Positions 2,057 through 18,810 of a stretch of DNA of 24,930 bases are shown piece after piece. Position numbers and translations under genes: made by a program. How positions within the stretch are numbered: position 1 is the first letter of the stretch; every line of letters starts with the position of its first letter. The notes under the pieces were generated by a model that saw nothing but the letters and a program-made list of their open reading frames with translations, made no database searches and was not told the origin of the DNA. Origin of the DNA: Clostridiales bacterium (GTDB taxonomy: Bacteria > Bacillota > Clostridia > Monoglobales > Firm-18); assembly GCA_031255355.1 (NCBI GenBank), contig JAIRSR010000077.1:1-24930 (forward strand). Reading direction: 5' to 3'.

Positions 2057-4237
2057 TCAATTTTTTTCAAATTCCGATTCAATTTTTTCAAAAACCATAA
2101 CTTCCCCCGCGTACTCATACGCCTCTAACGCAATACCAATGCCCGCCCGCGCAAGCGCCGCCCCGCTGTACACCTTGCCGTTACAGCGGTAGGACGCGCT
2201 CGGGGAAAGTCCCTTTAGGAACACGCGCCGCGACTCGCCGTTCAAAGCGGTTTGCGTCTGATAAGTAAACAGCACCGCCTGCTTGCCGTCCGCGCTTACG
2301 AACTCCCACGCCGCGCCGCCGTCAAAAGGACTTTCCAAACGGTAAAAATCCCCGAACTGCACAGTTTGCCTTAGATGCTTGTATCGCGCGGCAATCTCCG
2401 CCGCCTGCCGCCGTTCCGCCGCGGATAGCCGCGTCAAGTCCATTTCAAAGCCGAAATTCCCCGCCATCGCGACGCGGGCGCAAACGTCCATGAACGCGTT
2501 GCGGCAATCGCGCCCGGTATCAATACTGCCGATATGCGCCGCCATTGTGATTGGCGGGTAAACCACCGAAGTGCCGTGCTGGATTTTCAGCCGCGCGATC
2601 GGGTTGGTGTTATCGCTCGTCCACGTTTGCGGCATATAATACAACATGCCCGGGTCGAACCTCCCGCCGCCGCCGCCGCAACCCTCGAACAGCACGTTGG
2701 GGAAGCGTTCGGCAAGCGTTTCCAACACGCGGTACAGCCCTAACATATACTTATGCGGTTGGGTTTGGTCCGCCGTTTCGGTTAGGTTGCGGTTGCAATC
2801 CCACTTGACATACTCGATGTTGGCGGAGCGGAGTACTTCCGACACCGCGCCGATGATGTATTCGCACACTTCCTCCCGCGACAGGTCCAGCACAAGTTGA
2901 TAGCGGTTTTCCGTGCGTTTGCGTCCCTCGGCGAATACGCACCAATCGGGGTGCGCCCGATAGAGCAGACTATCCGGCGACACCATTTCCGGCTCGAACC
3001 ACAGCCCGAACTTCATACCCATACCGTTCACCGCATCCGCGACGCCGCGCAAGCCGTTGGGAAGTTTCGCGGAGTTGACGTGCCAATCGCCGAGGGAACA
3101 AGTATCGCCGCCGCGCGCACCGAACCAACCGTCGTCCAGCACGAAAAGTTCCAAGCCGATTTCCGCGCCGACTTTCGCGATGTCAAGCAACTTTTTTTCG
3201 TCAAAGTCAAACCCGGTCCCCTCCCAATTGTTAATCACCATCGGGCGGGGCGCGTCGCGGTACTTCCCCCGGCAAAGCCGCTCACGGTACATACGGTGGT
3301 ACACGCGGCTCATGCCGCCGATTCCCTCGCCCGAATGGACCATAACCACCTCGGGCGTTTGGAACACGTCCCCCGGGGCAAGCGGCCAGTCGAAGCCGAA
3401 AGGATTCAAGCCCGCGGTTACGCGTGTGCCGCCGCAGGAATCCCCCTCCGCCGACATACTGAAATTGCCGCTGTACACAAGGGAAAAGCCGTACACCTCG
3501 CCGCTGTTCTCGTCCGCGTTTTTCGCCGTAAGCGCGATAAACGGATTGTGCGCGTGCCCGCTCATGCCGCGCTTGGAGTCAATTGTGACGATCCCGCGCC
3601 CTACGGATAATACCTCCGGGTACCGCTCCCGCGCCCAATCGCCCCGCAAATGCAGCAGGTTGTACTCCTTGCCGTAAAAATCCACACACGCGGACTGCGC
3701 CGAAAGCAGTGCGATTTCCCCCGCGCCCGCGTTTTCATAGCGGATATTGCGCGTAATCACGTCGTACTCCTCAAAAACGCTGTAACAAAGGACGGCTTTC
3801 AGCCCGGTCAGCGCGTCGCGCAAGGTAACTTCCAGCGTTTGCGCTTCGGCGGCGTTTTCGGCGTAGGTAGCGGGCAAGCCGCGCAACTTCTTTTTGCCCC
3901 GGTAGATTTGATACCCCCCGTAGGCGAACTCCGACACCGTAGAGCCGTCGCCGTACCGCGCGTGGAATGCCGGTACGCGGTAATCCCCGCCGCCCACCAC
4001 TGAAAATTCCAACTTCAAATCGCTAAGGAACACGCGGTTTTCGCTGTCAAGCGGCACGTGGAACGCGTTCGCGCGGGAAAATATAAATTCCTCCGGCAAA
4101 TAGGTCAAATCTACGCCGTGTTCCAACCGCGCACCCCAATACAAGTGCGTTAAATACAGCCCCCGGTATACGGAAAAAATATAACTCACGCGCTTCGTTT
4201 GCAGATGAAATTGGCCGTTGTGATATTTGATACTCAT
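2057..4237 (-). CDS. Alpha-galactosidase, glycoside hydrolase family 36 (cytoplasmic)
   Basis: 726 aa with GH36 motifs NNWEG, FVLDDGWFG, FGLWFEPEMVSPDS, YVKWDCNR, GGGGGRFD and WTSDNT. No signal peptide. Confidence 0.95.
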   Translation of the reverse strand: MSIKYHNGQFHLQTKRVSYIFSVYRGLYLTHLYWGARLEHGVDLTYLPEEFIFSRANAFHVPLDSENRVFLSDLKLEFSVVGGGDYRVPAFHARYGDGSTVSEFAYGGYQIYRGKKKLRGLPATYAENAAEAQTLEVTLRDALTGLKAVLCYSVFEEYDVITRNIRYENAGAGEIALLSAQSACVDFYGKEYNLLHLRGDWARERYPEVLSVGRGIVTIDSKRGMSGHAHNPFIALTAKNADENSGEVYGFSLVYSGNFSMSAEGDSCGGTRVTAGLNPFGFDWPLAPGDVFQTPEVVMVHSGEGIGGMSRVYHRMYRERLCRGKYRDAPRPMVINNWEGTGFDFDEKKLLDIAKVGAEIGLELFVLDDGWFGARGGDTCSLGDWHVNSAKLPNGLRGVADAVNGMGMKFGLWFEPEMVSPDSLLYRAHPDWCVFAEGRKRTENRYQLVLDLSREEVCEYIIGAVSEVLRSANIEYVKWDCNRNLTETADQTQPHKYMLGLYRVLETLAERFPNVLFEGCGGGGGRFDPGMLYYMPQTWTSDNTNPIARLKIQHGTSVVYPPITMAAHIGSIDTGRDCRNAFMDVCARVAMAGNFGFEMDLTRLSAAERRQAAEIAARYKHLRQTVQFGDFYRLESPFDGGAAWEFVSADGKQAVLFTYQTQTALNGESRRVFLKGLSPSASYRCNGKVYSGAALARAGIGIALEAYEYAGEVMVFEKIESEFEKN

Positions 4238-4260: not shown

Positions 4261-7143
4261 CTAAAAATTATACAAAATATACTGTCTGCCGCCGCCGTGC
4301 GCGGGAATCCAAAGGACGCGGCTGGCGTGTTGTTCGCCGTATTGATACATACCCTTAAAATCACTGATGGTCGCGTTGCGCACCTGCGGCTTTGCGCCGA
4401 CCGTAGCGTCATACACGATCGCGCCGCCCATCTGCCAATAATAGTTCGTGTTCATATGCCCCGTTACGTGGATTTTGCGCCGTCCGTCCGCGCCGTACCT
4501 GCCTGTATCGATTACCAAGCCGCTTTGCGAATCCACGTAGTACACAACCCCCGCGTACAGGCTGCGGATACTGCCGCCGTCCGTCAGCGCGTCGAAGTCC
4601 AAATCGGGGAAGGTCTTTGCCGTAATCGGGATATTGTAATAGGTATGCCGCCGATACGATGATACCACATCATTCCCCCGCGTGTAAAGTTGAATCAAAT
4701 CGCCCGCTTCCAAGCCGTCAAACGTGTGTTCGTCCCGCCCGATATACTCTTTCATGACAACGCCCGTCGCCACCTCGACCGCGCCGACCGCCGCGCCGTC
4801 CTTGTCCAATTTTTTGAACACGCGGCTGACCATGACGGGGAACGCGAAGCGCGTGGTGATAATTTCCTGCTCCGCACCGCCCGCGTCGGCGTAAATGAGG
4901 GCAATTTGCGGACGCATATCAAAGCCGCAATCGTAAAGTTCGATGGAATACGGCCGCGCGTTGGCGGGCGCTTGCACGCTGTAATCCTCGTCGTGAAACG
5001 TTTCCGGCGAGGGAACAAAAAAGTATTTGTTCGGCTTGTGATAGCCCGTATCGTCTGCGGCGCGGAGGAGTCTGCCGCTCGTATCCTCCACCAGATTGTA
5101 CTCGTCGATCGGCACACTGCGCTGTAAATGCGCCGACTCCACCAAGCCGTTTTGATTGATTAGATCCTCCGGCAAGCAAGTTTCCAATTCGGCGAGCATA
5201 CCGTCGGCGGTCAGGCGGTAGCGAATCATCTGTGAAATCCCGAACCCGCCGCGCAACATTCCCGCCACGCGCTTCAAAAGGGTCAACGCCTCGTCTTTGC
5301 TAAGGGAATCGCCGTTGACGTTCGTCTTTCGCTCTGTCGTAACAACGATAATCTCACCGTCGTCCGTCATGATTTTCAGTTGCAAAGTATCGGAAAGCGC
5401 ACCCCGCGCGGAGCCGGCGTTGATGAGGTACCCGTACCGCAACGCGTCCGTCGCGCCGCTTTCTTTGAACGCAACGATTTCCCCCGAAAAGTCAAGATAA
5501 AACAACCCTGTTTTCCCCAACGTCAACGCGCCGTCAAGTTCGTTAAAATAATTGCTCGGCGAACTTTTGAACGTCTTGCCGCCGATTTCCACATTCCCCT
5601 CGCCGTCAATCGCTTCTATGGTACCCTCGATTTTCCGCGTAGAAATAACAAACCGCGTGTAAACCGCGTCCCCGGCGGGAAGCAAATGCCCGCGCTGTTC
5701 CTCGTACTTATCGGCAAACGCGCTGAGTACGCAATCGGCGGGAATCCGCGAAACATCTATCGTCTTTGCCGGCTTGCCGTCCTTGCCGAACACGCCGGGA
5801 ACGTCTGCATAATATTCAACCTCCGTGCCGTCGGCGTTGGCGAACTCCAAAATCGTGTCCCCGCTCATACGCGCCGTAATCGGCAAAAGGCTGTACTGCG
5901 GTGTGAGCGTGATTGTATGTCCGCCGTCCGCCGAAGCCCGTTGCAGCAAAAGATTCTCGTAGCGGTTGACGCACACCAAATCGTAAATATCGTCGTCATA
6001 ATTGGAAACCAGCGTAATACTGCCCTGTTGGATTTCCAACGCCGCCCCCAAACTCGGAACCGCCGCCGCCGTGCCGTTGATTAGCACCGTAGGCGCGTCG
6101 CTCAACACCGCCGTCAGTACGCGGCGGCCGTCGTCCTCCGTATAACGAATCGTTTTCGCGGACGGCGTATAGTTCACATAATCCTCCGCGTCGATTTCAA
6201 TTTCCGCGACCTTTCTGTGGTCGATGAGGTAAATCACCGTATACGCGCCGTCGTCATCACGGTAAAAGAACTGTGTCCGATACCCCAAACGCGCCGCGCC
6301 CGCCTTTTGGTCAAGGGCGTATACGTCCTCATCTATTTTCACCGTACCGCGCTTCACCGCGCCGCCCGATAAGCCGCCTGCACGGGTCGCCGTGACAATG
6401 CCGTCCCCCTCGTAAACCTCGTGCCGTTCGGAAAGAAACGTTTCCTCCGTATTCACCGCGTAGGTGTTCCGCTCCCCCGCGCGGTTTTTTTGCAAGGGAT
6501 GGCTTCGTAACATGTTATAGATAAACTCCGCGAACACGCCGCGCGTCATGCCGTCCGCGCTTCGGAACGATACCCCCGCCCGCCGCGCCGCCGCGAAGTA
6601 CCCCTCGGGATAGCCGCCGCTGACCCGCGCGAACTCCTCATACCCCATGACGCGCGTCAACAGCACCACCGCCTCGGTATAGGTAAGCCGCGTGTTGACG
6701 TTGACGGTATTATCCGCGTTGCCTTTCAAAATTCCGTATGCCGCCAACGCCTGCACCGCCGAAAAATACGGCGAATCCCTGTCTACGTCATAAAACGTGC
6801 CGATCGGCGCGTCCGCGAACGCCGCGGTATCGATCCCTGCGGCGGCGGCGGTAATCACACACGCATCCCCTTTTAATACAGGCGCGTCGGGTCGAAATGT
6901 GCCGTCGTCAAAGCCCCGCATAACGCCAAGCGTATCTAAAAACCCCGCGTACAACTTCAACGAACCCTCCCGCGCGTCGGAAAAGGCGGGCGCCTGTTCC
7001 CCCGGGGCAGATTCCACCGCTTCGGCAACGTCGATATTGTCATACTCATGCCCCGCGCCGCTTAAATCGTCCGCGCTTAGCGAAACACAGCGGGTAAGGA
7101 TAATCAGCAGCGCGGCGGCGGTCGCGGTAAAGCGTCTTTTCAT
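4261..7143 (-). CDS. Secreted SLH-domain (S-layer-like) protein, 960 aa (P6)
   Basis: AAAGGAGG RBS; signal peptide MKRRFTATAAALLII...SLSA. N-terminal SLH repeats (LGVMRGFDDGTFRPD; YGILKGNADNT..LTYTE; TRGVFAEFIYNML) at about 6505-6983, then ~740 aa of beta-rich sequence with no recognisable catalytic motif. Confidence 0.85.
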   Translation of the reverse strand: MKRRFTATAAALLIILTRCVSLSADDLSGAGHEYDNIDVAEAVESAPGEQAPAFSDAREGSLKLYAGFLDTLGVMRGFDDGTFRPDAPVLKGDACVITAAAAGIDTAAFADAPIGTFYDVDRDSPYFSAVQALAAYGILKGNADNTVNVNTRLTYTEAVVLLTRVMGYEEFARVSGGYPEGYFAAARRAGVSFRSADGMTRGVFAEFIYNMLRSHPLQKNRAGERNTYAVNTEETFLSERHEVYEGDGIVTATRAGGLSGGAVKRGTVKIDEDVYALDQKAGAARLGYRTQFFYRDDDGAYTVIYLIDHRKVAEIEIDAEDYVNYTPSAKTIRYTEDDGRRVLTAVLSDAPTVLINGTAAAVPSLGAALEIQQGSITLVSNYDDDIYDLVCVNRYENLLLQRASADGGHTITLTPQYSLLPITARMSGDTILEFANADGTEVEYYADVPGVFGKDGKPAKTIDVSRIPADCVLSAFADKYEEQRGHLLPAGDAVYTRFVISTRKIEGTIEAIDGEGNVEIGGKTFKSSPSNYFNELDGALTLGKTGLFYLDFSGEIVAFKESGATDALRYGYLINAGSARGALSDTLQLKIMTDDGEIIVVTTERKTNVNGDSLSKDEALTLLKRVAGMLRGGFGISQMIRYRLTADGMLAELETCLPEDLINQNGLVESAHLQRSVPIDEYNLVEDTSGRLLRAADDTGYHKPNKYFFVPSPETFHDEDYSVQAPANARPYSIELYDCGFDMRPQIALIYADAGGAEQEIITTRFAFPVMVSRVFKKLDKDGAAVGAVEVATGVVMKEYIGRDEHTFDGLEAGDLIQLYTRGNDVVSSYRRHTYYNIPITAKTFPDLDFDALTDGGSIRSLYAGVVYYVDSQSGLVIDTGRYGADGRRKIHVTGHMNTNYYWQMGGAIVYDATVGAKPQVRNATISDFKGMYQYGEQHASRVLWIPAHGGGRQYILYNF

Positions 7144-7181
7144 TACGGATTCCTCCTTTGCCTTGAAAGATTACTCCCGGG

Positions 7182-9437
7182 TTAGCGGGCAGCATTGTAT
7201 AGCCGATACAGGATAGACGCGGCTTCGGCGCGTGTCGCCGCCTCATTTGTCCGTGGGTATCCGTTTTCGTACAGCCGCGCGAACAGTCCGTAGGCGATTG
7301 CCGTCAAAACGTCCTCCCGCGCCCACGCGGAAACACCCGATAAATCCTTAATGCCAAGCGCGTCAACCGATAGACCGCCCTGCCGCGCAACACCCCCGCG
7401 CAAACGGTACGCGCGGTTCGCGGCGGCGGCGATTTCCTCCGCCGTCACTTGGTCGTCAGGCGCGAAAACCGCTTCCCGCTTGCCTTTCAAAACGCCCTTG
7501 TAAAAAAGTCCGTCCGCGCCGTCCGCGTACCACGCGCCGTCAGGTACGTCAGTGAAATGCTTCGGATAGCCCCCGCCAAGCCCCAGCACCCGCGCCAGCA
7601 TCACCGCAAATTCCGCGCGTGTCACGGGTTCATAGGGCGCGAACACCGTCGCCGTCTTGCCTTGAATAAAGCCCAAATCGGTCATTTTCGCGATTTCATT
7701 CCGCGCCCAACAGCCGTCTATGTCGGCGAACGCCGTTTCAACGGGCGCGTCCTCCCGTTCGCCGCCCGCCTGCCCGCCCAAGCCCGCGATTTCCGCCGCC
7801 GTTTCAAGGGTCAGCACCGCCAAACTCTTGTTCGGCATATGATAATTCTTGAAATTCGCGGTGTTCCGCTCCGTCGTCACCGCCGTCACAATATCCGCTT
7901 CTTTCGCGCTGTAAATAAAGGATTGCGTGTTCGGCGCGGTGAACACCGTTTCGCTTTTCAGCGTGTAATCATGCTTCAAATCAAAGGCGATATTGAAGTC
8001 AAGGTCTTCCCGCATATTTACCAGAATAATTTTCAAACGGTTCCCGCCCTCCGCCGTCACCAACGCGCTCATTCGGAGGTTGTCGTCCGTTTCGTCCGTC
8101 ACCGGGTCGTCAGAGGTCAAAACGCTCCGCACCACGCGGTCGCCCAGACCGCCGGCATAGACGTGGTACATCTGCCCAACGGGTGATTGGTATAACGTGC
8201 CGCCGACGTACTGCGCCAAGCCCCACCAGCGGCTTTCCTCCCCGCCGTCAAAAAAGGAGTGATACGTCGCGCCGCCCATATCGCCGCGCTTCATCATGAC
8301 GTTAAAGAACTGCGCCGTACTCAGCGCGGAAAATAAATTGATTCTGCCCGCGTCGTCCAAGCCCTCGTCCGCGAAACGCGCGTGTTCCGTCAATAAAAAC
8401 TTCACGCCGTGCCCCGCGCCCAAAACACGCTCCAACGCGTCCGACATATCGTCGAACAAGCCGCTCATGTACGCCGTGGACATGCCGTCATAATAGGGGT
8501 GGAACGCGAGGTAGTCGCAATCCGCGCCAATCGCCCGCGCAACCCCCTCCGTCCATTTGATATGCGATTCCGCTTCGCTCCAAGGCGCGGTTTTGCCGCA
8601 CATGACAAACTTCGCCTCCGGCGCGGCGGCGCGAATCGCCGCGATATGCTTCGGCGCGATTTCAGAGTACCATTCCAACTTCGACTGTGAAAACGCCCAC
8701 ACATTATCCTGTTCCGGCTCGTTCAGCGCGGAGTCGATTTCATTCCCCAACTCAAAAGCGAACACGTTCACCGGCTCCGTCATGCCGTACATGGCGCGGA
8801 GTGCCCCCCACTCGGACTGCCCCGCCTCATGCGTCAAAAACGCGGCGAGGTTGGCGTTGTCCTCCGGCGTGGCGTGTGTGACGGAAATTGTGCATAAATA
8901 CTGACCGTTCGGGTTGATGGACCGCATCAGTTTGACGAACTCCAACGGCCCCATGTTGGTCGCCACGCGTCCCTCACTGCCAAGCGGCGAGACGTCCCGC
9001 GTGTACTTGTTGCCGTCCACCCGCGCACTGCCGGAGCGGGTATTCATTTGCCCGATATTCAAAATCAAATTCGTTTCCTCAATCGCCGCGCCGCCGTACC
9101 GAAACAGCGGAAAGTCAAACACACGCGGCGCGAACGCTTGAAATTCGGGCGCGAAGTCCGTTCCCTCCAGGATATGTCTGTGGCTGCTCTCGTACTGCAC
9201 TCCCAGCATTTCCATCACCGTCGCGTGGAGAGGGTCGTCCTCGTCCACTGTCAAAACAGCGTCCGCCGTCGCGGTTGCGGTCACACTTTCCCGCAATCGC
9301 GCCTGTTCGCTGTCATTCAACGCCGCGTACGCGGGAAGCGAAAGGGTACACGCCGTCAGCAGTAACAGCGCGATACATTTTTCATACCTTCGGTTATACC
9401 TTCGGTTATACCTGCGGTTATACACGCGGTTATACAC
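7182..9437 (-). CDS. Secreted, SLH-anchored clan GH-A glycoside hydrolase, GH51-like and divergent (P5)
   Basis: Likely GTG start at 9437, 8 nt after GGAGG (the ORF track uses 9446). Signal peptide, then W..LR.MYG..EP, FELGNE (acid/base), DYLAFHPYY, LLTEH (candidate nucleophile) and a C-terminal beta-sandwich. Three SLH repeats at about 7190-7730 (TRAE, TAEE, TRAE). Confidence 0.8.
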   Translation of the reverse strand: MYNRVYNRRYNRRYNRRYEKCIALLLLTACTLSLPAYAALNDSEQARLRESVTATATADAVLTVDEDDPLHATVMEMLGVQYESSHRHILEGTDFAPEFQAFAPRVFDFPLFRYGGAAIEETNLILNIGQMNTRSGSARVDGNKYTRDVSPLGSEGRVATNMGPLEFVKLMRSINPNGQYLCTISVTHATPEDNANLAAFLTHEAGQSEWGALRAMYGMTEPVNVFAFELGNEIDSALNEPEQDNVWAFSQSKLEWYSEIAPKHIAAIRAAAPEAKFVMCGKTAPWSEAESHIKWTEGVARAIGADCDYLAFHPYYDGMSTAYMSGLFDDMSDALERVLGAGHGVKFLLTEHARFADEGLDDAGRINLFSALSTAQFFNVMMKRGDMGGATYHSFFDGGEESRWWGLAQYVGGTLYQSPVGQMYHVYAGGLGDRVVRSVLTSDDPVTDETDDNLRMSALVTAEGGNRLKIILVNMREDLDFNIAFDLKHDYTLKSETVFTAPNTQSFIYSAKEADIVTAVTTERNTANFKNYHMPNKSLAVLTLETAAEIAGLGGQAGGEREDAPVETAFADIDGCWARNEIAKMTDLGFIQGKTATVFAPYEPVTRAEFAVMLARVLGLGGGYPKHFTDVPDGAWYADGADGLFYKGVLKGKREAVFAPDDQVTAEEIAAAANRAYRLRGGVARQGGLSVDALGIKDLSGVSAWAREDVLTAIAYGLFARLYENGYPRTNEAATRAEAASILYRLYNAAR

Positions 9438-9440
9438 GCG
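9381..9440 (-). repeat. Five-copy 12-bp imperfect tandem repeat spanning the P4 stop and P5 start
   Basis: Minus-strand units: CGCGTGTATAAC, CGCGTGTATAAC, CGCAGGTATAAC, CGAAGGTATAAC, CGAAGGTATGAA. They encode (R)VYN RVYN RRYN RRYN RRYE in P5. Confidence 0.95.
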
Positions 9441-12210
9441 GCGCACCTCCTTTCAAGCCCGAAAGATAAATCATCTTGGCGGTTTCGGCGCGTGTCGCCG
9501 TTTCGTTCGGCGCGAACGCGCCGTTTCCCCGCCCGGAAACGATCCCCGCGAGTTGCAGTTGCGTCACCGAATCGAACGCCCACTCCGCAATATCGCCGTA
9601 ATCACTGAACCATGCCGTTGTTTCGGTAATCGGCAAGGAAAGCCCCTTGTTCCCCAACGCGCGTACCACAAGAACGGCAATCTCCTGCCGCGTGATTTCA
9701 CGCTCGGGGTGAAAACGGTTCGCGCCGTCGCCGTAGACGATTCCCGCTTCCACACCCGCCTTGACGTAGCCGTAATACCACGCCGCAACGGAAACGTCCT
9801 CAAATAGCAGCGGTTCGGATTCCCGTTCTGTTTCCGGCGCACCCTCGCCGAACGCGGTCAGAACGATTTTCAAAAATTCCGCGCGGGTAATCGCGCCGTC
9901 GGGACGGAACAAGCCGTCCTCATAGCCGCCCACCGCGCCAAGCGCGGTCAGATAGCGGGTCGCCTCGTAACTCCAATGGTCGATCGGGACATCATTGTAA
10001 AGCAGTGTTTTGCCCACCGCCGTACCGTCTGACGGCACAACCGGCGCGGGGGGCGGGGGGTCTAAGGTAAAGCCGCCTCCCCCTCCTCCGCCGCCGCCTT
10101 TTCCTCCTGTGGAGGACGGCTTGACCGGGGGTGTTTCCGGCGTGAAGCCGTCAATAAAGTCCTTGAGATCCTCTATGGTTTGCAGGGTATCCTTTTGTTG
10201 CAGCAACCCTGTATAAAACGCGCGGTTGCCGGCGGTATCCAAGTGTAAGGCGGAAAGCCGCGCCGCGTCATACCCGATCACGCCGCTGAAATCCGTCGTG
10301 ATTTGCCGCATATACTGATAGGTGTCACAGATGCCGAACGCGGTCAGCAGCAACGCCTCATCAAAGCGTTTCGCCACGTCCGCAACGTTTTTGAACTGAA
10401 CGTTTGTCAAACGCGACAGCACCGCCGCTTCCCGCCCGTCATAGTACTGCCCGCCCAGCGTCAAGCCGAACACGGCGTTATGTTCCCGCAACGCCGCCAG
10501 CACCTCCTCCGGCGCGGATAAGCCGTTCAAGCCGCCGACCGCGATTTCGTCCGCGAGGACGCGCTCCAAATACCGCAAATCCTCAAGCCCCGCGCAGGAG
10601 AACGCGGGATAGGTAGCAACACGCTCCAAATAATCCGCGTAAGCGGCGGGGTTCGTCTGTTTCAACGCCGCCGCCGGGGATGCGTCGATTATATCGATCC
10701 GTTGCAGGCTCAAATCGCCGCTTCCCGTGATGATTCCGTCCATCGCGGCAAAATCCTTGGCGGCGACGGCGGCGTTGAGCGCGTCGGTAATCAGCCGCTT
10801 TTGCGCGAAATACCGCGCCGTTTCGCCGCGTTCCGCCGCGTAGGTGTACTCACTGACGACCCGCGCCTTAACCGTAAGCGTTTCCGCGCCGCGTGACGCG
10901 GTAATTTGCGTATCGCCCTCACGGATTCCGTACAACGCGCCGCCGCGCATTTCCGCGACGTCCGGTCGCCGTACGCTCCACGCTATGCCTGTTTCGAGCG
11001 CACCGCCGATTCGCGCCCGCAACGCCAACGGATTCCGCAAAAACGCGATAATTTCCCCCGCCGGCGCGGACGCGCCCGAACGCTCCTTGCCGTACACGTG
11101 GATAAAATCCACTTGCAGGTGGTCGTCGTTCACGGACGAACGGTTTACGCCGAGTTGCAGCAGCATATCGTCCGTGCCGCGCCGCATCAGCCCGCCCGCG
11201 TCAGTCAACGTCAATACCGCGCTCATGGCGGCGTTTCCGCTGTTGCGCACGTCCGCTTTTACGGTGTTTTCCGCCCTGTCCAGCGTGATTTCCATATCAT
11301 ACCAAGCGGTATAGGCAAAATTATCATTGCCGTTGACATAATCCACCGTTGCGCCGTCCACTACCTTGCGGATATACGGACGGTAGGACATCGGCTGCGG
11401 GAACAGCGTATCGCCGTTCCCGAGGATTCCCGCCTCGTAATACGTCCTCTCGTCCTCGCTGACGCAAAAACGCACCGACGCGCGAACACCGTTATACCGC
11501 GCGAATTTCATCGTAACGCGGCTGAGGTCGCGCTCTGACGCGGCGGGGACGTGCAAATTCACAAAGCCGTCATGCGTTCCGCTCTGTTCCGCGACTTGCA
11601 TGGTCGCGTCCGTGCGAATGTACAGCATCACACCTCTGTGCGGGTTGTTGATGTAGCCGACCGATACATCAGAACGCTGCCAATAGCCCTCGCCGTTCGC
11701 CGCGACTACCGTACCGCCGTCCCCGGGTAAATCGTCCCCGCGTACCGCGTTCGCCCTGTCGTAGCGGGAATTCGCGGCATTGTACGTCGTGAACGCGTCA
11801 CTGAACACACGCGTTTCGGCGGCGGAAGCGGTGTTCTCGTACCGCGCGTCTATCCGCGTAAAGACCGAAACCGCCGCCGCGTCCACCTCTTGCGGGAACA
11901 CAATGCCGGAATACGCCGCGTCCGCGTCTTGGTTCAAAAACAGCCCGCCCGCGTCAAAAAAAGCGGAAACTGTTTGCGGCTCCGCGCCCGTAAACTCCAG
12001 CGTTACGGTACGCCCCGCCAACGGCGGGTAAGCAACCAAAGCGACTGCCGTTGGCGTTTCAAAGGTAACGGTGCTTCCCACGGCAAAAACAGCGGTTTCT
12101 TGATACATAGCGGAATTTTCCGCCGACGCGTACGCCCCGCCGTGAGCGGCGCATAGGGCAAGCGCGGCAAACAACGCCAAAATCCTGCTTTTTTGTATCT
12201 TTAACATCAT
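9430..12210 (-). CDS. Secreted multidomain SLH protein, 926 aa, no recognisable catalytic motif; candidate scaffold or glycan binder (P4)
   Basis: GGAGG RBS and signal peptide. Domains: ~240-aa beta-rich domain shared with P1 (11089-11808); Ig-like domain (IAWSVRRPDVAEM..GDTQITAS); alpha-helical repeat region (about 10147-10812); Pro/Gly linker (TPETPPVKP..GGKGGGGGGGG..PPPP); three canonical SLH repeats (TRAE, TRQE, TRAE). Confidence 0.85.
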   Translation of the reverse strand: MMLKIQKSRILALFAALALCAAHGGAYASAENSAMYQETAVFAVGSTVTFETPTAVALVAYPPLAGRTVTLEFTGAEPQTVSAFFDAGGLFLNQDADAAYSGIVFPQEVDAAAVSVFTRIDARYENTASAAETRVFSDAFTTYNAANSRYDRANAVRGDDLPGDGGTVVAANGEGYWQRSDVSVGYINNPHRGVMLYIRTDATMQVAEQSGTHDGFVNLHVPAASERDLSRVTMKFARYNGVRASVRFCVSEDERTYYEAGILGNGDTLFPQPMSYRPYIRKVVDGATVDYVNGNDNFAYTAWYDMEITLDRAENTVKADVRNSGNAAMSAVLTLTDAGGLMRRGTDDMLLQLGVNRSSVNDDHLQVDFIHVYGKERSGASAPAGEIIAFLRNPLALRARIGGALETGIAWSVRRPDVAEMRGGALYGIREGDTQITASRGAETLTVKARVVSEYTYAAERGETARYFAQKRLITDALNAAVAAKDFAAMDGIITGSGDLSLQRIDIIDASPAAALKQTNPAAYADYLERVATYPAFSCAGLEDLRYLERVLADEIAVGGLNGLSAPEEVLAALREHNAVFGLTLGGQYYDGREAAVLSRLTNVQFKNVADVAKRFDEALLLTAFGICDTYQYMRQITTDFSGVIGYDAARLSALHLDTAGNRAFYTGLLQQKDTLQTIEDLKDFIDGFTPETPPVKPSSTGGKGGGGGGGGGFTLDPPPPAPVVPSDGTAVGKTLLYNDVPIDHWSYEATRYLTALGAVGGYEDGLFRPDGAITRAEFLKIVLTAFGEGAPETERESEPLLFEDVSVAAWYYGYVKAGVEAGIVYGDGANRFHPEREITRQEIAVLVVRALGNKGLSLPITETTAWFSDYGDIAEWAFDSVTQLQLAGIVSGRGNGAFAPNETATRAETAKMIYLSGLKGGAPRV

Positions 12211-13364
12211 CGCGATTCCTCCGTTTCCGCGTTTCGGGGTAACAGCCCTGTGAAGAAACGCGCGGCATTTGTAAATACAAACGTCTTGACTTCCGGCGCG
12301 TTTACGTAAAAGGGTACGGTGACTTTCGGGGTCGAAACGGTCAGAGTACTCCCGGGCGCAACGCTTGCCGTCCCCGTGTACAGGCGCGATAGCCGCCCGC
12401 CGTCCGACAACGCCGCCGCCAAAAGGATTTCCGCCGCAGTATCGGTGTGATTCGTAACGTCTACGGAGTAAACGCCGTCCCGCTCGACCGCCGTGGAAAT
12501 ATCAATCCCGCCGTAGGGACGGAACGTAACGCCGAACGTACAACGCGCACCGAAAAAGTCCGCTTCCAGCGTAACCGTGCCGACAGACGCGCCGAGGTAG
12601 ACCAAATTGCCGTCCTCGATCCGTCCGTCACCCGCCGTCACGCGGTAACGCACCAAATCCGCCGCCTCAATCACTTCCCTCACGCCGTCCGAATCGATCC
12701 CCACGGGACGCGCCGCGCCAAGCGGCATAACGGCGCCGCGCCAATCCCCGCCCTTTATGTCAAGGCCGACGGGTGCTGAATGAATGGATAAATCGTCAAT
12801 ATAAATTTTATCATAAGTGTTATCCGACGCGCTCTGACGATTGATGTTAATCATGAAATCGACAAAATTATGCGCGTCATACCGCGCGAACGGAAACGAA
12901 CCGTACACCTTGTACCAGCCCCCGCCCGCCGCTTCCGCGCGAAAGGAAGCGTCCGCCGCCGCGTCGCCGCCCGAACCGCCGCGCATGACCACCAACGGCG
13001 CGACGCGGTCAGACATTCCTCCGTACACACCCTTGATATAGTACGAAAAGTATAACGCCCTACGGCGAATCGTATCGGTAATCACGCCGGACGGCACCGA
13101 ATAGGACAGCGCGGAAAGTCCCGTGCCGCTCCTGTAACTGATTTCCAGGGAACGCTTGCCGCTGTAACGCTCCGCTTCGGTATGCGCGGCGGCAAAGCCC
13201 GCGTCGTTGTGAAAATAATAATTATGGGTGCGGTCACTTTCCATATTCGCGGCGCCGTATTGACTGACGACCGCGCCGTACAGCCTGCGCTCATACGCCG
13301 CCCCCGCGCGGGGAAACAGCAAAATCACCACGGCAAGCGCGGTAAAAACGCGCGTTCGTGTCAC
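12207..13364 (-). CDS. Secreted non-catalytic protein: CBM4/9-like beta-sandwich, Ig-like domain and shared C-terminal domain (P3)
   Basis: Likely GTG start at 13364, 8 nt after AAGGAG (the ORF track uses 13373). Signal peptide ending RAGA-AY. CBM-like pattern YSGKRSLEI..FSYYIKG..GWYKV..IYIDDLSI. No SLH. Confidence 0.75.
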   Translation of the reverse strand: MTRTRVFTALAVVILLFPRAGAAYERRLYGAVVSQYGAANMESDRTHNYYFHNDAGFAAAHTEAERYSGKRSLEISYRSGTGLSALSYSVPSGVITDTIRRRALYFSYYIKGVYGGMSDRVAPLVVMRGGSGGDAAADASFRAEAAGGGWYKVYGSFPFARYDAHNFVDFMININRQSASDNTYDKIYIDDLSIHSAPVGLDIKGGDWRGAVMPLGAARPVGIDSDGVREVIEAADLVRYRVTAGDGRIEDGNLVYLGASVGTVTLEADFFGARCTFGVTFRPYGGIDISTAVERDGVYSVDVTNHTDTAAEILLAAALSDGGRLSRLYTGTASVAPGSTLTVSTPKVTVPFYVNAPEVKTFVFTNAARFFTGLLPRNAETEESR

Positions 13365-13369
13365 GCCGA

Positions 13370-15973
13370 TCACTCCTTTATTAAATATACGTCGGTCAGC
13401 GGACGGAGGGAATTGTCCTCCAAGATCAACGCCCGCGCCAACGCCGCGCCGATTACCGTCGGCGTTCGTACCAAGGGGGAAATTTCCCCGCCCGCCGCAA
13501 CGCCCTCCGCTTCACTTACCGCAACGGCGGTGAGGTTGCCCGCGCCGTCATAAAACGCCAAATACACTTGTACGGAAGCAATCGCCGCGTCCCCGAGGTT
13601 TTGTAAGCCGATAGCCGCCGTCCGCTCCTCCGTCAGCATCCCTAAGGTCAGCCGCGCCCCGTCCTCCGTCCGCAAAGGCGCAATCACGCGCACGGCTTCC
13701 CCCGGTTTGACAAAATCAAGTTCCGTTTCAAACACATCATGCTCCGTTGTGATGCGCAAACGGTACGCGCCCGATACCGCGTCACGCGGGAAAAGCAGTT
13801 CATACCGCTGTGCCGCGCCGAATTTGGTTCCCGCCCCGGCGTAGCGGAGTTCTCCGTCAGCCGCGCTTGTCAGCGTCACGCCAAAGCGTTCGCCGTCCCG
13901 CGTCCGCGCGTCGTTCCAATAGATATGGAACGCCGTTTCATAATCGCCGTTCGGTTGCGAGAGCGGTTCCAACCGCGTCACCGCGCCGCTCGCCCGATAG
14001 TCCAGCCGCACCGTCTTTTGCGCCGCGCCCGCGCCGACGCGCAGGAAATATTCGCCGTTCGGCAACCCGGGCGGCAGCAACGCCTCAAAATAGCCCCTGT
14101 TCCGCGCGATTCCGTCCGCTTGCGCCATGTAAATCACGCCGTCCGGCGTAAGTTCGGGCGATGCGGGATCGGACGCGAACAATACGGCGGTCAGTTCTGA
14201 AACGCCGTTTAACGCGCCGTTTTCAAACAGGGAAAATTCCACCCGCACCCGCTCCGCCGTCACAACCGGCGCGGTATAGGTATCGGCGGGTACGCCGTTC
14301 ACCCGCAGGGAAACCGCGTCATTCGCGGTGTATTGCCGCTCCGTCGGCACAAGGTAATATGCCGTGATGGTCTTTGCGCCGATTGTCTGTGCGGGAACGT
14401 CCGCCGCGTGGATTCGCTCTGCCTTTGCGACCATCGCGTCAGGCGCGGTAATGTCGGTCAGCGGGCCGTTATCCGAGGCGTCGCTTGCTGCGGTGAGGGT
14501 CACGCGTTTTTCCAGTTTATAGTTGTTTTGCGTGGAAAAATCCAACGTATGCGCGGCGTTGGAGGCGTTTACGGCAAGGAGGTTCAACCCGCCCTCCGCT
14601 GTCGTATGCGCCGATACCGTCAAGGTATGCGCCGTGGTTCTCATGTTGTCGCCCGTGACCCGCACCGAATCCACCCCGAACGCGTCAGACGCTAATTTGA
14701 AAAACTCACCCACGCCGGAAAGCGCGAAGCCGAAATCGGGGAACGCCCGCATCAAGCCCCACACCCCGCCGCCGAACGCGTCAGCCGCCGAGGGATAGTC
14801 CATTGTCGTGTGATACACCGCAATCGGCGCGTCAGGGGACTTAATCAAGCGGTTCACCATGTCCGCCGTGGATAGCGTCCCCGCGCGGCCTGTCGCGATG
14901 GTGCGCGAGGCGGTGTTGTAATGTTCCACCCCGCCGAACACCGCGTGTTCCGACAAAAACGGCGCGGGCATCTTTTCTGCGGGAAGTCCGTCCGTACAAA
15001 TGCCGTATCCGTCCCATGTCCAACGGCTGTCCGCATTGAAATACCGATACATACTGCCTGTGTTGTGATAATAGCAATGCACAACGATATAATCCAGCCT
15101 GTCGCTCAATTCCTTTAACAGCAGGTTGATTTTCGTGTTAAACACCGAATATTTTGTTTGGGACTCATGCGGCGTAGTGCAGGACTGCACCGCCAGCGGC
15201 ACGTTCGGGTTGACTTCCCGCAATGCGGGGACGATCGCGCGGCACCACGCGGCGTACATGTCCCCCGCTTCGCCGTAAATCCGATCGTAAATCGCCTGTT
15301 TCTGCGCCGAAGTCCGCGCCGCCGCGAGTTCCGCCCGCACCGCGTCCGTTTCCAATATTTGATTGAAATAAAACCAATCCGTTTCGTTGCCCAACTCTAA
15401 CGCCGCCAAGTTGACCGGCTCCGCAATGCCCGCCTCTACGCGGCGGGAAGCCCAGTTCACGCCGTCCGCGCCAATCGCGGCGGGGTCGCTCGGCATCAAA
15501 GTCAAAAACCGTACCAAATCACGCAAATTGTCCAAATCGTCCTCCACCCGAATGGTAAAGGCAAAGGCGGCGTTCGGCGTGAGGTTCGCGCGGGCGCGAA
15601 TCCATTCCGCAAGCCCGAATGTGTACACCTGCGAAAAATCGTTCACCCCGCGCGATTCCAACGCGCCGACGGTTTCTTTCCAATTAAGGGTGTGCAAAAA
15701 GGCGCGGGCAATCGGGAAGCCGACGCCTGTTTTTTGAAACGCCTCCGCGAAGTCGTTTCGTACCGCCGCGGACGAACCGTTTGCCGCAGAGCCGAAAAAG
15801 CCTATATCGTCATTCAAACCCAGTACCCTTCGGTCTGACGGACGAAGCGCGGCGTTTTCCTCTACCGTAATCGTATATGCCGCCGAAGCCGCGCGGGGAA
15901 GCGAAACGCAAGCGATACTCGCGGCAATCAACGCTACGGCGGTGCGCCGCGCGGTGTGGTTCACCCTCCTCAT
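13370..15973 (-). CDS. Secreted clan GH-A glycoside hydrolase, GH51-like and divergent, with two Ig-like domains and the shared C-terminal domain; no SLH (P2)
   Basis: AAAGGAGGT RBS and signal peptide. Motifs W..RR..AG..EP, LELGNE, DYIVVHCYY, FLSEH. Paralogue of P5. Confidence 0.8.
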   Translation of the reverse strand: MRRVNHTARRTAVALIAASIACVSLPRAASAAYTITVEENAALRPSDRRVLGLNDDIGFFGSAANGSSAAVRNDFAEAFQKTGVGFPIARAFLHTLNWKETVGALESRGVNDFSQVYTFGLAEWIRARANLTPNAAFAFTIRVEDDLDNLRDLVRFLTLMPSDPAAIGADGVNWASRRVEAGIAEPVNLAALELGNETDWFYFNQILETDAVRAELAAARTSAQKQAIYDRIYGEAGDMYAAWCRAIVPALREVNPNVPLAVQSCTTPHESQTKYSVFNTKINLLLKELSDRLDYIVVHCYYHNTGSMYRYFNADSRWTWDGYGICTDGLPAEKMPAPFLSEHAVFGGVEHYNTASRTIATGRAGTLSTADMVNRLIKSPDAPIAVYHTTMDYPSAADAFGGGVWGLMRAFPDFGFALSGVGEFFKLASDAFGVDSVRVTGDNMRTTAHTLTVSAHTTAEGGLNLLAVNASNAAHTLDFSTQNNYKLEKRVTLTAASDASDNGPLTDITAPDAMVAKAERIHAADVPAQTIGAKTITAYYLVPTERQYTANDAVSLRVNGVPADTYTAPVVTAERVRVEFSLFENGALNGVSELTAVLFASDPASPELTPDGVIYMAQADGIARNRGYFEALLPPGLPNGEYFLRVGAGAAQKTVRLDYRASGAVTRLEPLSQPNGDYETAFHIYWNDARTRDGERFGVTLTSAADGELRYAGAGTKFGAAQRYELLFPRDAVSGAYRLRITTEHDVFETELDFVKPGEAVRVIAPLRTEDGARLTLGMLTEERTAAIGLQNLGDAAIASVQVYLAFYDGAGNLTAVAVSEAEGVAAGGEISPLVRTPTVIGAALARALILEDNSLRPLTDVYLIKE

Positions 15974-16003
15974 GTGCTTCTACCTCCTTTCGCGCGGACG
16001 CGC

Positions 16004-17887
16004 TTAATCAAGATTGATTGTGGGGCATAAGGGCGAGAGCAGAGCAAAGCCGTCCTCCGCCCAAAGGAATAGCCTGTGCGCACTGCCGACCTCCTCCGAA
16101 AGATTCAGCGTAACCGGCGCGGCAATACTTTCCGCCGGAACCTTTTCAAAATCGAAGCCAATCAGCCTGTTGCCGCTGTAACTTGCGGCAAGCACGGTAA
16201 TATATTCCGTAACCTTGGACGCGTAAGCGGCGGGGATGCTCACCGTAACCGTGCCGCCGTCCACTTCCCAATGCAACCGCCCCGCTACGCCGGAAACACT
16301 GACGGCAGCAAACTGATTGAAGTCGTTTTCGTTTGCGGATTTTGAGCCGGCTTGGAAAATAACGTCATCCGTCCCACGGTTCAAAAACGCGCCGTCGTCC
16401 GTCAAGGTAACGCTCCACGCGTTGTTCCCCGCGTCATATTCCTGCTCCTTGCTTCCTCTGAACGTAATCCCGCCGGAAGCCGCGTCTATCGTAATCACCG
16501 CGTTCATCCAAGAGGTTCCCCCCGCCGTGGCGGAGGTTGCCGCCGCGTAAGCCGTCTGTATGCCGTTGACCACTTTGCGGAGGTACGGACGCGCCCCGCC
16601 GCTCTCGTGAATGCCCGCCTCGTAAAAACTTTGCTCATCACTGCTCACGTTAAAGCGCATGACCGTCTGTACACCGTTGTACTTCGCGAATACAACGGCG
16701 ATTTTCGTCACGTCATACGCCGCCGCGCCGGGGGAATGCAGGTTAATCAAACCGTACTCTATATCACTTTGCCCGGAAATATTAAGCGATCCGTTGATAA
16801 ACGCGCGAACGCCGTCGTAACCGCCGGCAACGTACCCCTTGAACACGTTGGAACGTTTCCAATAACCGTTGACGTTCGGCCGGGCGTCGCCCACCACCGT
16901 CGCGCCGCCGGAATCCGCCGTCGTGCCGCGCACCGCCGTCCCCGCCGTCGTTTTCGCGTTGTTCGCGTTGTATGCGGAGAAATCATCATAGAAGATATTG
17001 ACCTCTCTGTTCGGCGTGCCGTAAATATCCACATAATCTACCGAAACCCGGTTATTTTCATTGCGGGGACGAAGCCACGCGCCGCCGATTTGGAACACCA
17101 TATTGCCTATGCCTCTTTCGAGGAATTCCCCCTGTTCCGTGTATACACCGCTGTACAGCACTGTGTTATCGTTGCCGTTTTTCAGGGTATATGAAATTGT
17201 TTTCGCGTCCTTGTCAATGTCCACTTCAGAGATAAACCATGAAGTACCGCCGTGTGTTTGCGTATCCGCTGCCACAAGTTCCGTCCCATGTCCGTTTACC
17301 ACCTTGCGGATATAGGCGTAGCCCGTTTTGCCGCTGCCCGCTATCGTTTCCTCATTTGCTCTCAATCCGCTAAGCCCTACCTCGTAAAAGGACTTCTCAT
17401 CCGCGCTGACGTTAAACCGCTGGATTGCCCGCGCGTCGTTATACCGCGCGTATCTTACCTCAAACTTCGTCAAACTGTAATCCACGGCGCGGTCGGAGTA
17501 CAAATTCACCATAGACTGTTCCCATGTGCTGTGTCCCGCAATTTCAAGGGTGTCATCGCCCTCGATAAACGTTTGTATGCCATACGCGCCGATGTCCGTG
17601 TTAATCCACCCCGTACCCGTTTCGCTTACGTTAGAACGCTTCCAATAGCCGCCCAACGCCGCGCGGTCGTCCGCTACCACCGTCGCGCCGCCGGAATCCG
17701 CCGTCACGCCGCGCACCGCGTTTGCCTCGCCCCTTTTGGCGTTGGCGTCGGTGTAGGTATCAAACTCGTCATGGAATATGAGCGCACCCTCAGCCGAAGC
17801 GGTAACCGGCGCGATTCCCGCCAACATACCGCACAGCAGCGCGAACGCCGCCAAAACCGAAATCCCTCTTTTGATGACCTTTAACAT
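16004..17887 (-). CDS. Secreted protein with two tandem copies of an unrecognised ~240-aa beta-rich domain and the shared C-terminal domain; no SLH (P1)
   Basis: AAGGGGG RBS; signal peptide ending ASA-E. Internal duplication 17018-17779 versus 16289-16996. Confidence 0.85.
   Translation of the reverse strand: MLKVIKRGISVLAAFALLCGMLAGIAPVTASAEGALIFHDEFDTYTDANAKRGEANAVRGVTADSGGATVVADDRAALGGYWKRSNVSETGTGWINTDIGAYGIQTFIEGDDTLEIAGHSTWEQSMVNLYSDRAVDYSLTKFEVRYARYNDARAIQRFNVSADEKSFYEVGLSGLRANEETIAGSGKTGYAYIRKVVNGHGTELVAADTQTHGGTSWFISEVDIDKDAKTISYTLKNGNDNTVLYSGVYTEQGEFLERGIGNMVFQIGGAWLRPRNENNRVSVDYVDIYGTPNREVNIFYDDFSAYNANNAKTTAGTAVRGTTADSGGATVVGDARPNVNGYWKRSNVFKGYVAGGYDGVRAFINGSLNISGQSDIEYGLINLHSPGAAAYDVTKIAVVFAKYNGVQTVMRFNVSSDEQSFYEAGIHESGGARPYLRKVVNGIQTAYAAATSATAGGTSWMNAVITIDAASGGITFRGSKEQEYDAGNNAWSVTLTDDGAFLNRGTDDVIFQAGSKSANENDFNQFAAVSVSGVAGRLHWEVDGGTVTVSIPAAYASKVTEYITVLAASYSGNRLIGFDFEKVPAESIAAPVTLNLSEEVGSAHRLFLWAEDGFALLSPLCPTINLD
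16289..17779 (-). repeat. Intragenic tandem domain duplication in P1 (third copy in P4 at 11089-11808)
   Basis: Both copies share IF.D.F..Y..NAK, AVRG.TADSGGATVV, GYWKRSNV, A.YN, RFNVS.DE.SFYE.G, Y.RKVVNG, GGTSW and RG...FQ.G. Confidence 0.9.
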
Positions 17888-17923: not shown

Positions 17924-18775
17924 TCACTCTTTCACCGCACCCGCCGCCAAGCCGGATACGAAGTACTTGCCGGCACAGGCATACGCCGCCACCACGGGAA
18001 TCAGCGCGATTGCGGAACCCGCCAGCATGAGGTTCCACGACGAAGCCGCGCCGCCTCCGCTTTTCAACGCCATCAGCCCTACAATCAGCGTCTGCTGTTT
18101 TGGATTTGTCATGGTAAAAATCGTCGGCATGATGTAATCGTTCCAACTCCACTGAAATGTCAAAATCGCCACCGTCGCTAAAATAGGCTTCAGCATAGGC
18201 AGAATCACGCGGCAATAGATGCCGAAAAAGTCACAGCCGTCGATTTTCGCCGCCTCGTCCACCGCACGCGGAATCGTGGACACATAGCCGCGCACCAGGT
18301 ACACGTTCACAATCGGCACGCCGAACACGTTCAGCAAAATCAGCGCGGGAAGCGAACGGTCCAGCCGCAGAAGCCCCAGCACTTGAAACGTGGCGTAAAT
18401 CCCGATATTCCCCACCTTGATGAACATCAGCGATATAAAACAGCCGAAAATCAGCCGCTTGAAAGGGAACCGCCCCCGCGCGAACACGTACCCGCCCATA
18501 GAAGCCGTCACCACCGCGATCAGCACGTTTGCCAAGGTGTAATACAGGCTGTTCAGCCCCATAAGCCCCGCGTTAAAAGCGGGGTCCGTCCACACGGTGA
18601 CGTAATTTTCCAGCGTGGGCGCGGCGGGGAACACCCGCGCCGGCTCCGCCATAATCTCCATGTTGGTCTTAAAGGACGACGCGACCGTGTACACCAACGG
18701 AAACGCGGTAATGACAAAGATCACGCCCAAAAACAAGTAAATGAAAATATTTTCAATGAGCAAGCGTTTTTTCAT
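17924..18775 (-). CDS. Carbohydrate ABC transporter permease (CUT1, MalG-like)
   Basis: Multiple transmembrane segments; EAA loop VDEAAKIDG; WSWNDY motif. Confidence 0.95.
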   Translation of the reverse strand: MKKRLLIENIFIYLFLGVIFVITAFPLVYTVASSFKTNMEIMAEPARVFPAAPTLENYVTVWTDPAFNAGLMGLNSLYYTLANVLIAVVTASMGGYVFARGRFPFKRLIFGCFISLMFIKVGNIGIYATFQVLGLLRLDRSLPALILLNVFGVPIVNVYLVRGYVSTIPRAVDEAAKIDGCDFFGIYCRVILPMLKPILATVAILTFQWSWNDYIMPTIFTMTNPKQQTLIVGLMALKSGGGAASSWNLMLAGSAIALIPVVAAYACAGKYFVSGLAAGAVKE

Positions 18776-18810
18776 CAGGCGATCCCCCTTAGACCGAAGT
18801 CGAATATTCC

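Follow-up and report, generated by a model that had tools for sequence, protein, structure and literature searches.

Conserved extracellular proteins of a Gram-positive polysaccharide-utilisation locus from uncultured Clostridia and a possible C-terminal surface-retention tag

Background

Cellulosomes and amylosomes rely on cohesin-dockerin pairs, with scaffoldins that are anchored through S-layer homology (SLH) repeats or by sortase, and Gram-positive polysaccharide-utilisation loci (PULs) with SLH-anchored glycoside hydrolases (GHs) are known from Paenibacillus, Caldicellulosiruptor and Thermoanaerobacterium. Here we describe a PUL-like locus of an uncultured gut or digester Clostridia bacterium, carried on a stretch of 24,930 nucleotides (24.9 kb; contig JAIRSR010000077.1 of assembly GCA_031255355.1, hereafter the window), which is one entire contig of a metagenome-assembled genome (MAG) of 1.37 Mb that is 55% complete. 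At its centre lie six genes, P1 to P6, that form a conserved sugar-harvesting surface set, and three of their products end in a domain of about 90 aa, the tail, with which most of this work is concerned.

There is a precedent for such a tail in CBM37 of Ruminococcus albus, a carbohydrate-binding module (CBM) of ~100 aa of which a genome has tens of copies, usually at the C-terminus (Xu et al. 2004; Ezer et al. 2008; in PMC4081043). Its carriers include many unrelated GH, carbohydrate esterase (CE) and polysaccharide lyase (PL) enzymes as well as proteins without catalytic function, and it fastens enzymes to the surface of the bacterium. CBM37 rarely stands beside an alternative anchor, which it replaces in orthologues, and has been reported as unique to R. 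albus (PMC4081043). A review of Gram-positive surface display includes no domain like the present tail among its wall-binding modules (PMC5817068).

Results

Six consecutive exported proteins form a conserved block

All relevant genes of the window are on the minus strand, where P1 to P6 are six consecutive open reading frames (ORFs). The original prediction had placed six consecutive exported proteins between ATP-binding cassette (ABC) permeases and cytoplasmic enzymes, and this arrangement was recovered from the ORF listing, from the Pfam families of the neighbours and from a Sec-type signal sequence at the start of all six proteins, recognised by eye from its basic n-region, the hydrophobic stretch that follows and an A-x-A-like site. 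A regulator, an ABC sugar importer, extracellular GH and CBM proteins and a cytoplasmic glycosidase are thereby brought together in one locus, on the same strand and with short gaps, and judging from this layout the genes are apparently co-transcribed.

The entire block was found in three other MAGs, besides two short partial contigs, which upholds the proposal that the six genes are a functional unit, given that the full set recurs with an ABC transporter. In a MAG from another family of the same order (G034) the order is solute-binding protein (SBP), permeases, P1, P2, P3, P4, P5, P6 and GH42, with a two-component regulator. Clostridiales bacterium Firm_18 (G005) has P1, P4, P5, P6, a GH5-like gene, P2 and a P3-lectin fusion, and in Oscillospiraceae bacterium SIG448 the block is complete or nearly so and rearranged (P4, P5, P5', P6, P2, P3, P2', P3'). 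In the loci compared, P2 and P3 are always adjacent, as are P4, P5 and P6, and the C-terminal half of P2 is present in only 4 of 151 genomes of the order. It is well supported that the block represents a conserved extracellular apparatus of a Gram-positive PUL.

Two variants of the block deserve mention. In SIG448 (SVJZ01000009.1, 9977-17484) the P2-P3 pair is present as a tandem duplicate, suggesting that P2 and P3 act as a unit, and P5 is duplicated too. The P3 ortholog of G005 (locus L009, 15788-17635) carries a ConA-like lectin domain after the tail, so that features of P3 and P1 are combined in one protein and the tail is internal.

Anchored and unanchored proteins share catalytic and lectin-like modules

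The division of the six proteins into three unanchored (P1-P3) and three anchored ones (P4-P6) stands with respect to the SLH repeats. The Pfam SLH model (PF00395) finds three repeats in P4 (116 bits), three in P5 (74 bits) and, at the N-terminus of P6, two above threshold (51 bits), with a degenerate third visible by eye, and through these repeats P4, P5 and P6 are predicted to be anchored to the wall. At E<=0.1, Pfam detected SLH alone and no cohesin in P4-P6, and in P1-P3 no SLH, no Dockerin_1 and no Pfam family whatever. The absence of cohesins and dockerins noted earlier therefore holds for the six proteins, and both modules occur elsewhere in the same genome. The other half of the proposed division, one and the same tail domain on P1, P2 and P3, was not seen in pairwise comparison, as described below.

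As had been noted, modules span the two groups. By BLASTP, the 240-aa domain of P4 (aa 127-374) is matched by P1 at aa 29-290 and 295-522 (E 7e-35 and 8e-40), and a GH domain is common to P2 (aa 119-500) and P5 (aa 165-509; E 4e-10). GH51 chains in the PDB, from arabinofuranosidase structures, match P5 (E 1e-7 over ~180 aa) and give no match to P2; the NCBIfam ArfA model matches both proteins weakly and partially (21-36 bits, with a cut-off of 625), and precomputed matches to the Pfam ASD1_dom (the GH51 catalytic domain) are found on orthologs only, some of them weak or faint. In an alignment of four P2 orthologs the glutamates in LGNETD (E197) and SEHA (E342) are invariant, and their counterparts in P5 are LGNEID and LTEHA; by analogy, we take the glutamates of the GNE and of the SEHA/TEHA motifs to be the acid/base and the nucleophile, respectively. 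From their sequences, P2 and P5 are probably active, divergent GH51-like enzymes of clan GH-A.

The 240-aa domain has no match by profile among PDB sequences and none in Pfam. An AF2 model built from 10 copies (pLDDT 77, pTM 0.82) gave 188 PDB hits at E<=1e-3 in Foldseek, the top ones being legume lectins and a lectin-like amylase inhibitor, and the best matches reached E ~1e-6 and prob 1.0 with a TM of 0.4-0.5. The domain is thus modelled as a ConA-like lectin/glucanase fold, and because the model superposes on legume lectins it is probably sugar-binding. In the remaining two proteins the evidence is of a similar kind: the profile of the N-terminal domain of P3 weakly matches the CBM22 of Paenibacillus Xyn10C (E 0.01), and the body of P6 is modelled as a chain of small beta-barrels (pLDDT 69) that in the AlphaFold DB resembles DUF5666 proteins and uncharacterised SLH or 'S-layer' proteins, the only Foldseek hits in the PDB being meaningless propellers (TM<0.1). 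Word-index searches gave SLH-driven matches only with the P6 alignment, and with P1 and P3 only the query proteins themselves. The P6 family has several paralogues per genome.

The GH51-like enzymes and GH36 of this locus, together with the GH42, GH5-like or GH31 genes of orthologous loci, point to a plant glycan containing arabinose or galactose as the probable substrate.

The tail is a genome-wide, mostly C-terminal module

An exhaustive metagenome search with a profile of 13 tail sequences matched 864 representative proteins (clusters) at E<=1e-3. Among the 146 best hits, 112 have the tail no more than 10 residues from the C-terminus, and only two also contain SLH. The carriers are diverse: 74 of them span 67 Pfam families, among which there are cohesin, dockerin, Flg_new, LRR_5, GDSL lipases, tyrosine phosphatase, Big_5, F5/8-C and CBM4_9. 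In the half-complete MAG studied here, 24 ORFs match the tail profile, 23 of them within 9 residues of the stop and none with SLH in the same frame, and three relatives have 14-20 matches each (14-18 in G005 and G034). The extreme case is a protein of 3754 aa with 14 tail-matched stretches, 12 by local scan. The tail is, therefore, a genome-wide module and not peculiar to this locus.

A sample of 399 Clostridia genomes, each >=90% complete, included 105 that are tail-positive, and all 105 possess SLH proteins, against a base rate of 249/398. P6-like proteins were detected in 81 sampled genomes, 69 with the tail and 12 without it, leaving 36 of the 105 tail-positive genomes with no P6-like protein detected; as only two P6-like candidates per genome were scored, the count of P6-like proteins is a floor and the figure of 36 may be too high.

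A tail in the place of SLH repeats is seen in the same MAG, in which contig C46 encodes a P1-like protein with a tail, a P4-like protein and a GH51-like paralogue of P5. This paralogue, 43% identical to P5, has a tail at the end where P5 has its SLH repeats. Another contig (C254) carries a P4-like and P5-like pair. An ORF that is cut off by the start of contig C58 and the ORF at the start of C46 end and begin, respectively, with near-identical lectin-domain sequence, and the two contigs are probably one paralogous locus split by a repeat. The C58 part of such a locus would comprise an SLH protein, a P6-like protein and several other ORFs; the C46 part would add a P4-like protein and two proteins with tails, one of them P1-like with three lectin domains and the other a GH51-like enzyme.

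A P4-like and P6-like SLH pair recurs at three further places in related genomes, as part of a cassette in which a tail-bearing enzyme is accompanied by a protein of ~570 aa that has C-terminal SLH repeats and matches P4 at ~560-915, and by a P6-like protein of ~900 aa with N-terminal SLH repeats. The cassette was found at G038:C37, G038:C17 and G034:C7, among them a GH10 xylan locus; on C58 of the present MAG there is only the SLH pair, the tail genes being on its probable continuation, C46. The ~570-aa SLH protein directly followed by the ~900-aa P6-like protein often lies beside tail-bearing enzymes such as GH10 or CE4, and neither member of the pair has a known function. The helical region of P4 itself has one copy in G005 and one in G034, and no copy of it was found in G038, a 98% complete genome with P2/P3-like tail proteins.

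The same MAG also contains a cohesin protein on contig C26 (50 bits), which has an internal tail-like domain as well, a weak cohesin match on C44 (22 bits, below the cut-off) in frame with SLH repeats, and on C257 a 358-aa frame with a dockerin, which has a separate frame with an SLH triplet downstream of it. These modules indicate that the organism also has a small cohesin-dockerin system.

The three tails of the window are divergent members of one fold

The original prediction had P1, P2 and P3 ending in the same ~90-aa domain. In pairwise comparison, the likeness among the three tails does not exceed that of shuffled sequences (z -1.0, 0.7 and 1.5), phmmer gave no cross-matches among them, and MAFFT misaligned the three when they were aligned by themselves; since pairwise comparison finds no likeness, the sameness of the tails could not have been established from the window alone. 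What stands of the claim comes from profiles of the ortholog tails, which hhalign joins for P1 and P2 (93%, P 2.5e-7) and for P2 and P3 (78%, P 1.9e-5), the comparison of P1 with P3 not being significant. The tails are conserved inside each ortholog family and divergent between families, and a terminal motif W-[DE]-x(n)-L-x-P-L is conserved in the P1 and P2 tail families and missing from P3-type tails. A role of the L-x-P-L motif in sortase (LPXTG) anchoring was considered and rejected, as the motif is followed by neither a hydrophobic segment nor a basic tail and does not occur in P3-type tails.

ESM-Atlas models show an Ig-like beta-sandwich for all three tails. The nearest ESM-Atlas clusters are common to the P2 and P3 tails, and the P1 tail has one cluster in common with each. 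The fold is a generic E-set or CARDB-like beta-sandwich, and the closest structures are sandwich domains of GH2 and GH42 enzymes. No match was obtained for the tail among Pfam models or, by profile, among PDB sequences; a cluster look-up of ten tail proteins returned no names, and a tblastn search of a tail against plasmids found nothing relevant. With the NCBIfam model FxLYD_dom (NF038353), the P2 tail scores 20.7 bits (E 2.8e-4), below the cut-off of 23, the P1 and P3 tails are not matched, and 12 of 74 tail-bearing proteins are matched at E<=0.01. We read the tail as related to FxLYD and outside the NF038353 model. The literature search on FxLYD found no paper treating it as a protein domain, and the NCBIfam entry has no assigned function.

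Gene junctions, neighbouring genes and coordinates

The features of the locus are listed in Table 1. The gene order is AraC regulator, GFO/IDH/MocA oxidoreductase, SBP, two permeases, P1 to P6, GH36, Zn-dehydrogenase and a xylose-isomerase-like TIM-barrel protein. The tight linkage reported for P2-P3-P4-P5 was confirmed at each junction once alternative start codons are allowed: P2 and P3 are separated by a 5-bp gap from the database start of P3 or overlap by 4 bp from an upstream GTG, P3 and P4 share an ATGA overlap, and P4 and P5 overlap by 8 bp if P5 starts at GTG 9437, the likely start codon, 8 nt upstream of which there is a GGAGG. Tandem units of 12 bp (GTGTATAACCGC / AGGTATAACCGA) run across the P4 stop and the P5 start (9380-9446, minus strand) and give the signal peptide of P5 an unusually long basic n-region of YNR/YNRR repeats. 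A terminator scan found 32 candidates versus 30.6 in shuffled sequences, and is therefore uninformative on the operon ends.

The flanks of the locus (160-2044 and 22205-23275) encode the GFO/IDH/MocA oxidoreductase, the Zn-dependent dehydrogenase and the xylose-isomerase-like TIM-barrel protein, a set that recalls oxidative (3-keto) glycoside cleavage pathways. Between the SBP and oxidoreductase genes there is a 293-aa ORF on the plus strand (21363-22244) with no Pfam match, overlapped by a 277-aa minus-strand ORF, and either may be spurious. An ORF that is open at the contig end (24422-24928, plus strand) weakly matches BclA_C, the C-terminal domain of an exosporium collagen-like protein (E 0.0075, below the cut-off).

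Table 1. Coordinates and architecture of the genes and domains of the locus (window positions)
Feature	Position	Strand	Length	Description
AraC-family regulator	23369-24331	-		cupin + HTH_18; upstream of the locus
SBP_bac_1	19785-21167	-		ABC sugar importer (importer spanning 17924-21167)
BPD_transp_1 permeases (two genes)	18811-19755 and 17924-18775	-		ABC sugar importer
P1	16004-17887	-	627 aa	signal peptide, two ConA/legume-lectin-like domains (aa 29-292, 293-527), C-terminal tail
P1 tail	16007-16291	-	aa 533-627	FxLYD-like beta-sandwich, end motif W-x(n)-L-x-P-L
P2	13370-15973	-	867 aa	signal peptide, GH51-like clan GH-A domain (~aa 30-520), beta-rich middle, tail
P2 tail	13373-13666	-	aa 770-867	
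P3	12207-13373	-	388 aa	signal peptide, weakly CBM22/CBM4_9-like N-terminal domain, Ig-like middle (by eye only), tail variant
P3 tail	12249-12521	-	aa 285-375	without terminal L-x-P-L motif
P4	9430-12210	-	926 aa	signal peptide, ConA-like domain (aa 126-376), Ig-like region (by eye) and helical region (~aa 385-700), Gly/Pro linker, SLH triplet (aa 736-920)
P5	7182-9446	-	754 aa, or 751 from GTG at 9437	signal peptide, GH51-like domain, SLH triplet (aa 570-750)
P6	4261-7143	-	960 aa	signal peptide, N-terminal SLH repeats (~aa 54-213), chain of small beta-barrels
GH36 alpha-galactosidase	2057-4237	-		cytoplasmic; directly downstream of P6

Discussion

We propose that the block is the extracellular part of a Gram-positive PUL of uncultured, SLH-rich Clostridia and that the tail is a general surface-retention tag, a combined reading to which we give a probability of about 0.45. 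The bias of the tail towards the C-terminus, its presence on unrelated exoproteins, its near-exclusivity with SLH, the exchange of SLH for a tail in the P5 paralogue and its restriction to genomes with SLH proteins all point to an address or retention module. From its position, its distribution and these domain swaps, the tail may serve as a general C-terminal retention tag of SLH-type Clostridia, which would keep otherwise anchorless enzymes and lectins at the envelope beside their SLH-anchored paralogues, and oligosaccharides released there could then reach the neighbouring ABC transporter. As its ligand, a component common to the envelope, for instance the S-layer or a wall polymer, would be more likely than a site specific to this locus on P4 or P6, and this would match the way in which CBM37 acts in R. 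albus.

Several observations weigh against this proposal. The association of tail and SLH at the genome level is confounded by phylogeny, since there are ~18 tail-positive families and all are SLH-positive. The tail is internal in the P3-lectin fusion of G005, in the cohesin protein of C26 and in about a quarter of the best hits. Tail genes are found near P6-like genes more often than by chance, 7 of 22 P6-like loci in G034 and G038 having one within ~6 kb where ~2 would be expected, a proximity that fits protein-protein docking as well as shared loci, and the strong divergence of the three tails of the window could reflect specific partners rather than a common ligand. Moreover, Ig-like domains are frequently plain spacers.

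This last point leads to an explanation that we consider doubtful and yet worth keeping in mind, namely that the tail has no targeting role at all, being an Ig-like cap or spacer or a low-affinity substrate CBM, in which case P1-P3 would be free and only P4-P6 held by the cell. A generic E-set/CARDB-like sandwich whose nearest structures are the sandwich domains of GH2 and GH42 enzymes is what such a module might look like; the FxLYD family of NCBIfam, with no known function, is not treated as a protein domain in the literature found, and the tail can be internal or in tandem, as in the 14 stretches of the 3754-aa protein. However, a plain spacer is not expected to end so close to the C-terminus, no more than 10 residues away, in 112 of 146 proteins, or to lie at the end of 23 of 24 in this genome, and a substrate CBM is not expected on leucine-rich repeat (LRR) proteins, internalin-like proteins, lipases and a phosphatase. 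That a paralogue with 43% identity has the tail where P5 has its SLH triplet suggests equivalent roles for the two, and the confinement of the tail to genomes with SLH would be left unexplained. A different kind of function, in which the tail would direct secretion, sorting or processing and would be recognised, and perhaps cleaved, by machinery of its own as a Gram-positive counterpart of the C-terminal domain (CTD) of the type IX secretion system (T9SS), seems very improbable. The extreme C-terminal position, the beta-sandwich of the size of a T9SS CTD, the W-[DE]-x(n)-L-x-P-L ending of the P1 and P2 families and the presence of Por_Secre_tail in one ESM-Atlas structural neighbour cluster are consistent with it, but the signal peptides of P1 to P6 are of the ordinary Sec type, the loci compared are accompanied by no conserved gene that is a candidate for such machinery, P3-type tails are without the terminal motif and some tails are internal.

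The original prediction favoured docking, with the tail as one half of a protein-protein pair that plugs into the helical repeats of P4, into P6 or into both, giving a cellulosome-like complex free of cohesins and dockerins. The six genes are indeed kept together across MAGs, the cassette of tail-bearing enzyme, ~570-aa SLH protein and P6-like protein recurs, SLH is present in every tail genome, and tails that are conserved within ortholog families and different between them are what partner-specific docking would produce. Nevertheless, docking is unlikely in our view. The helical region of P4 is an unlikely partner, as G005 and G034 each have one copy of it for 14-18 tails and none was found in the 98% complete G038. 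Occurrence of the tail without P4- or P6-like partners had been named in advance as telling against docking, and this was found in part: a P6-like protein accompanies the tail in 69 of 105 tail-positive genomes, which speaks for docking, and was not detected in the other 36, a number that is perhaps too high with two candidates scored per genome. Many tail carriers, in addition, are unrelated to glycan loci, and one P3 ortholog (G005) has its tail inside the protein. Were docking nonetheless to prove right, an outcome to which we give little credence, the tail and the recurring P4-like/P6-like SLH pair would constitute a third, cohesin-independent mode of enzyme assembly on the Clostridia surface; that every glycan locus would then supply both the SLH receptors and the tail-tagged enzymes and lectins that go with them is improbable to the same degree. 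We thus retain the surface-retention tag as our working proposal.

What is new here is the recurrence of the block, the ConA/legume-lectin fold of the 240-aa domain, the tail family with its distribution, and the exchange of SLH for a tail in the P5 paralogue. If the tail does retain proteins at the surface, it would be a major uncatalogued display mechanism in Clostridia of the gut, the rumen and digesters, being present in about a quarter of the genomes sampled and in up to dozens of copies in each. The secretomes of these mostly uncultured fibre degraders would then have to be reread, as 'anchorless' would no longer mean 'released', and the tail would offer a new handle for surface display. 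The divergent GH51-like pair, the unannotated lectin-like family and the uncharacterised multi-copy SLH family are candidates for new CAZy or Pfam entries, and even if the docking claim is set aside, the six conserved genes offer a clean target for biochemical work.

Comparison with known systems

The closest working analogue of the tail appears to be CBM37, which it resembles in being C-terminal and multi-copy, in its varied carriers and in the replacement of an anchor. Cell binding has been shown for CBM37, whereas the tail is known from sequence. CBM37 has also been reported from R. albus alone, in contrast to the tail, which roughly one in four of the sampled Clostridia genomes encode. Membership of the tail in CBM37 was rejected, both tail hidden Markov models scoring <=1.5 bits on the one exemplar tested, the fn3-like C-terminal module of the GH11-CBM22-GH10 xylanase of R. 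albus 7, identified through the architecture given in Table 5 of PMC4081043. Among domain families, the FxLYD and CARDB E-set sandwiches share with the tail its size and the strand pattern x-V-x-V-x-N ... A-x-Y-D-x-x-G-x-L, while the terminal W...L-x-P-L motif and the C-terminal bias belong to the tail subfamily. The C-terminal domain of the T9SS of Bacteroidota (Por_Secre_tail) is likewise a beta-sandwich, of ~80-100 aa, with which many unrelated exoproteins end, but it belongs to another phylum and another machinery, and no homology to the tail was detected. One tail carrier has a true Por_Secre_tail.

With regard to the locus as a whole, cellulosomes and amylosomes are similar in that enzymes and binding modules are brought to the surface of Clostridia with SLH proteins as the wall-bound members, and in that one catalytic domain is combined with alternative targeting modules. 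They differ in their use of cohesin-dockerin pairs, of which there are none in P1-P6, where no repeated receptor modules are evident and the system is known from its genes. Other Gram-positive PULs combine, as this locus does, a regulator with a CUT1-type ABC importer, GHs and CBM proteins outside the cell, a cytoplasmic exo-glycosidase and SLH-anchored enzymes; what sets this locus apart from them is a conserved SLH trio, including the non-catalytic P4 and P6, together with a class of tail-bearing proteins.

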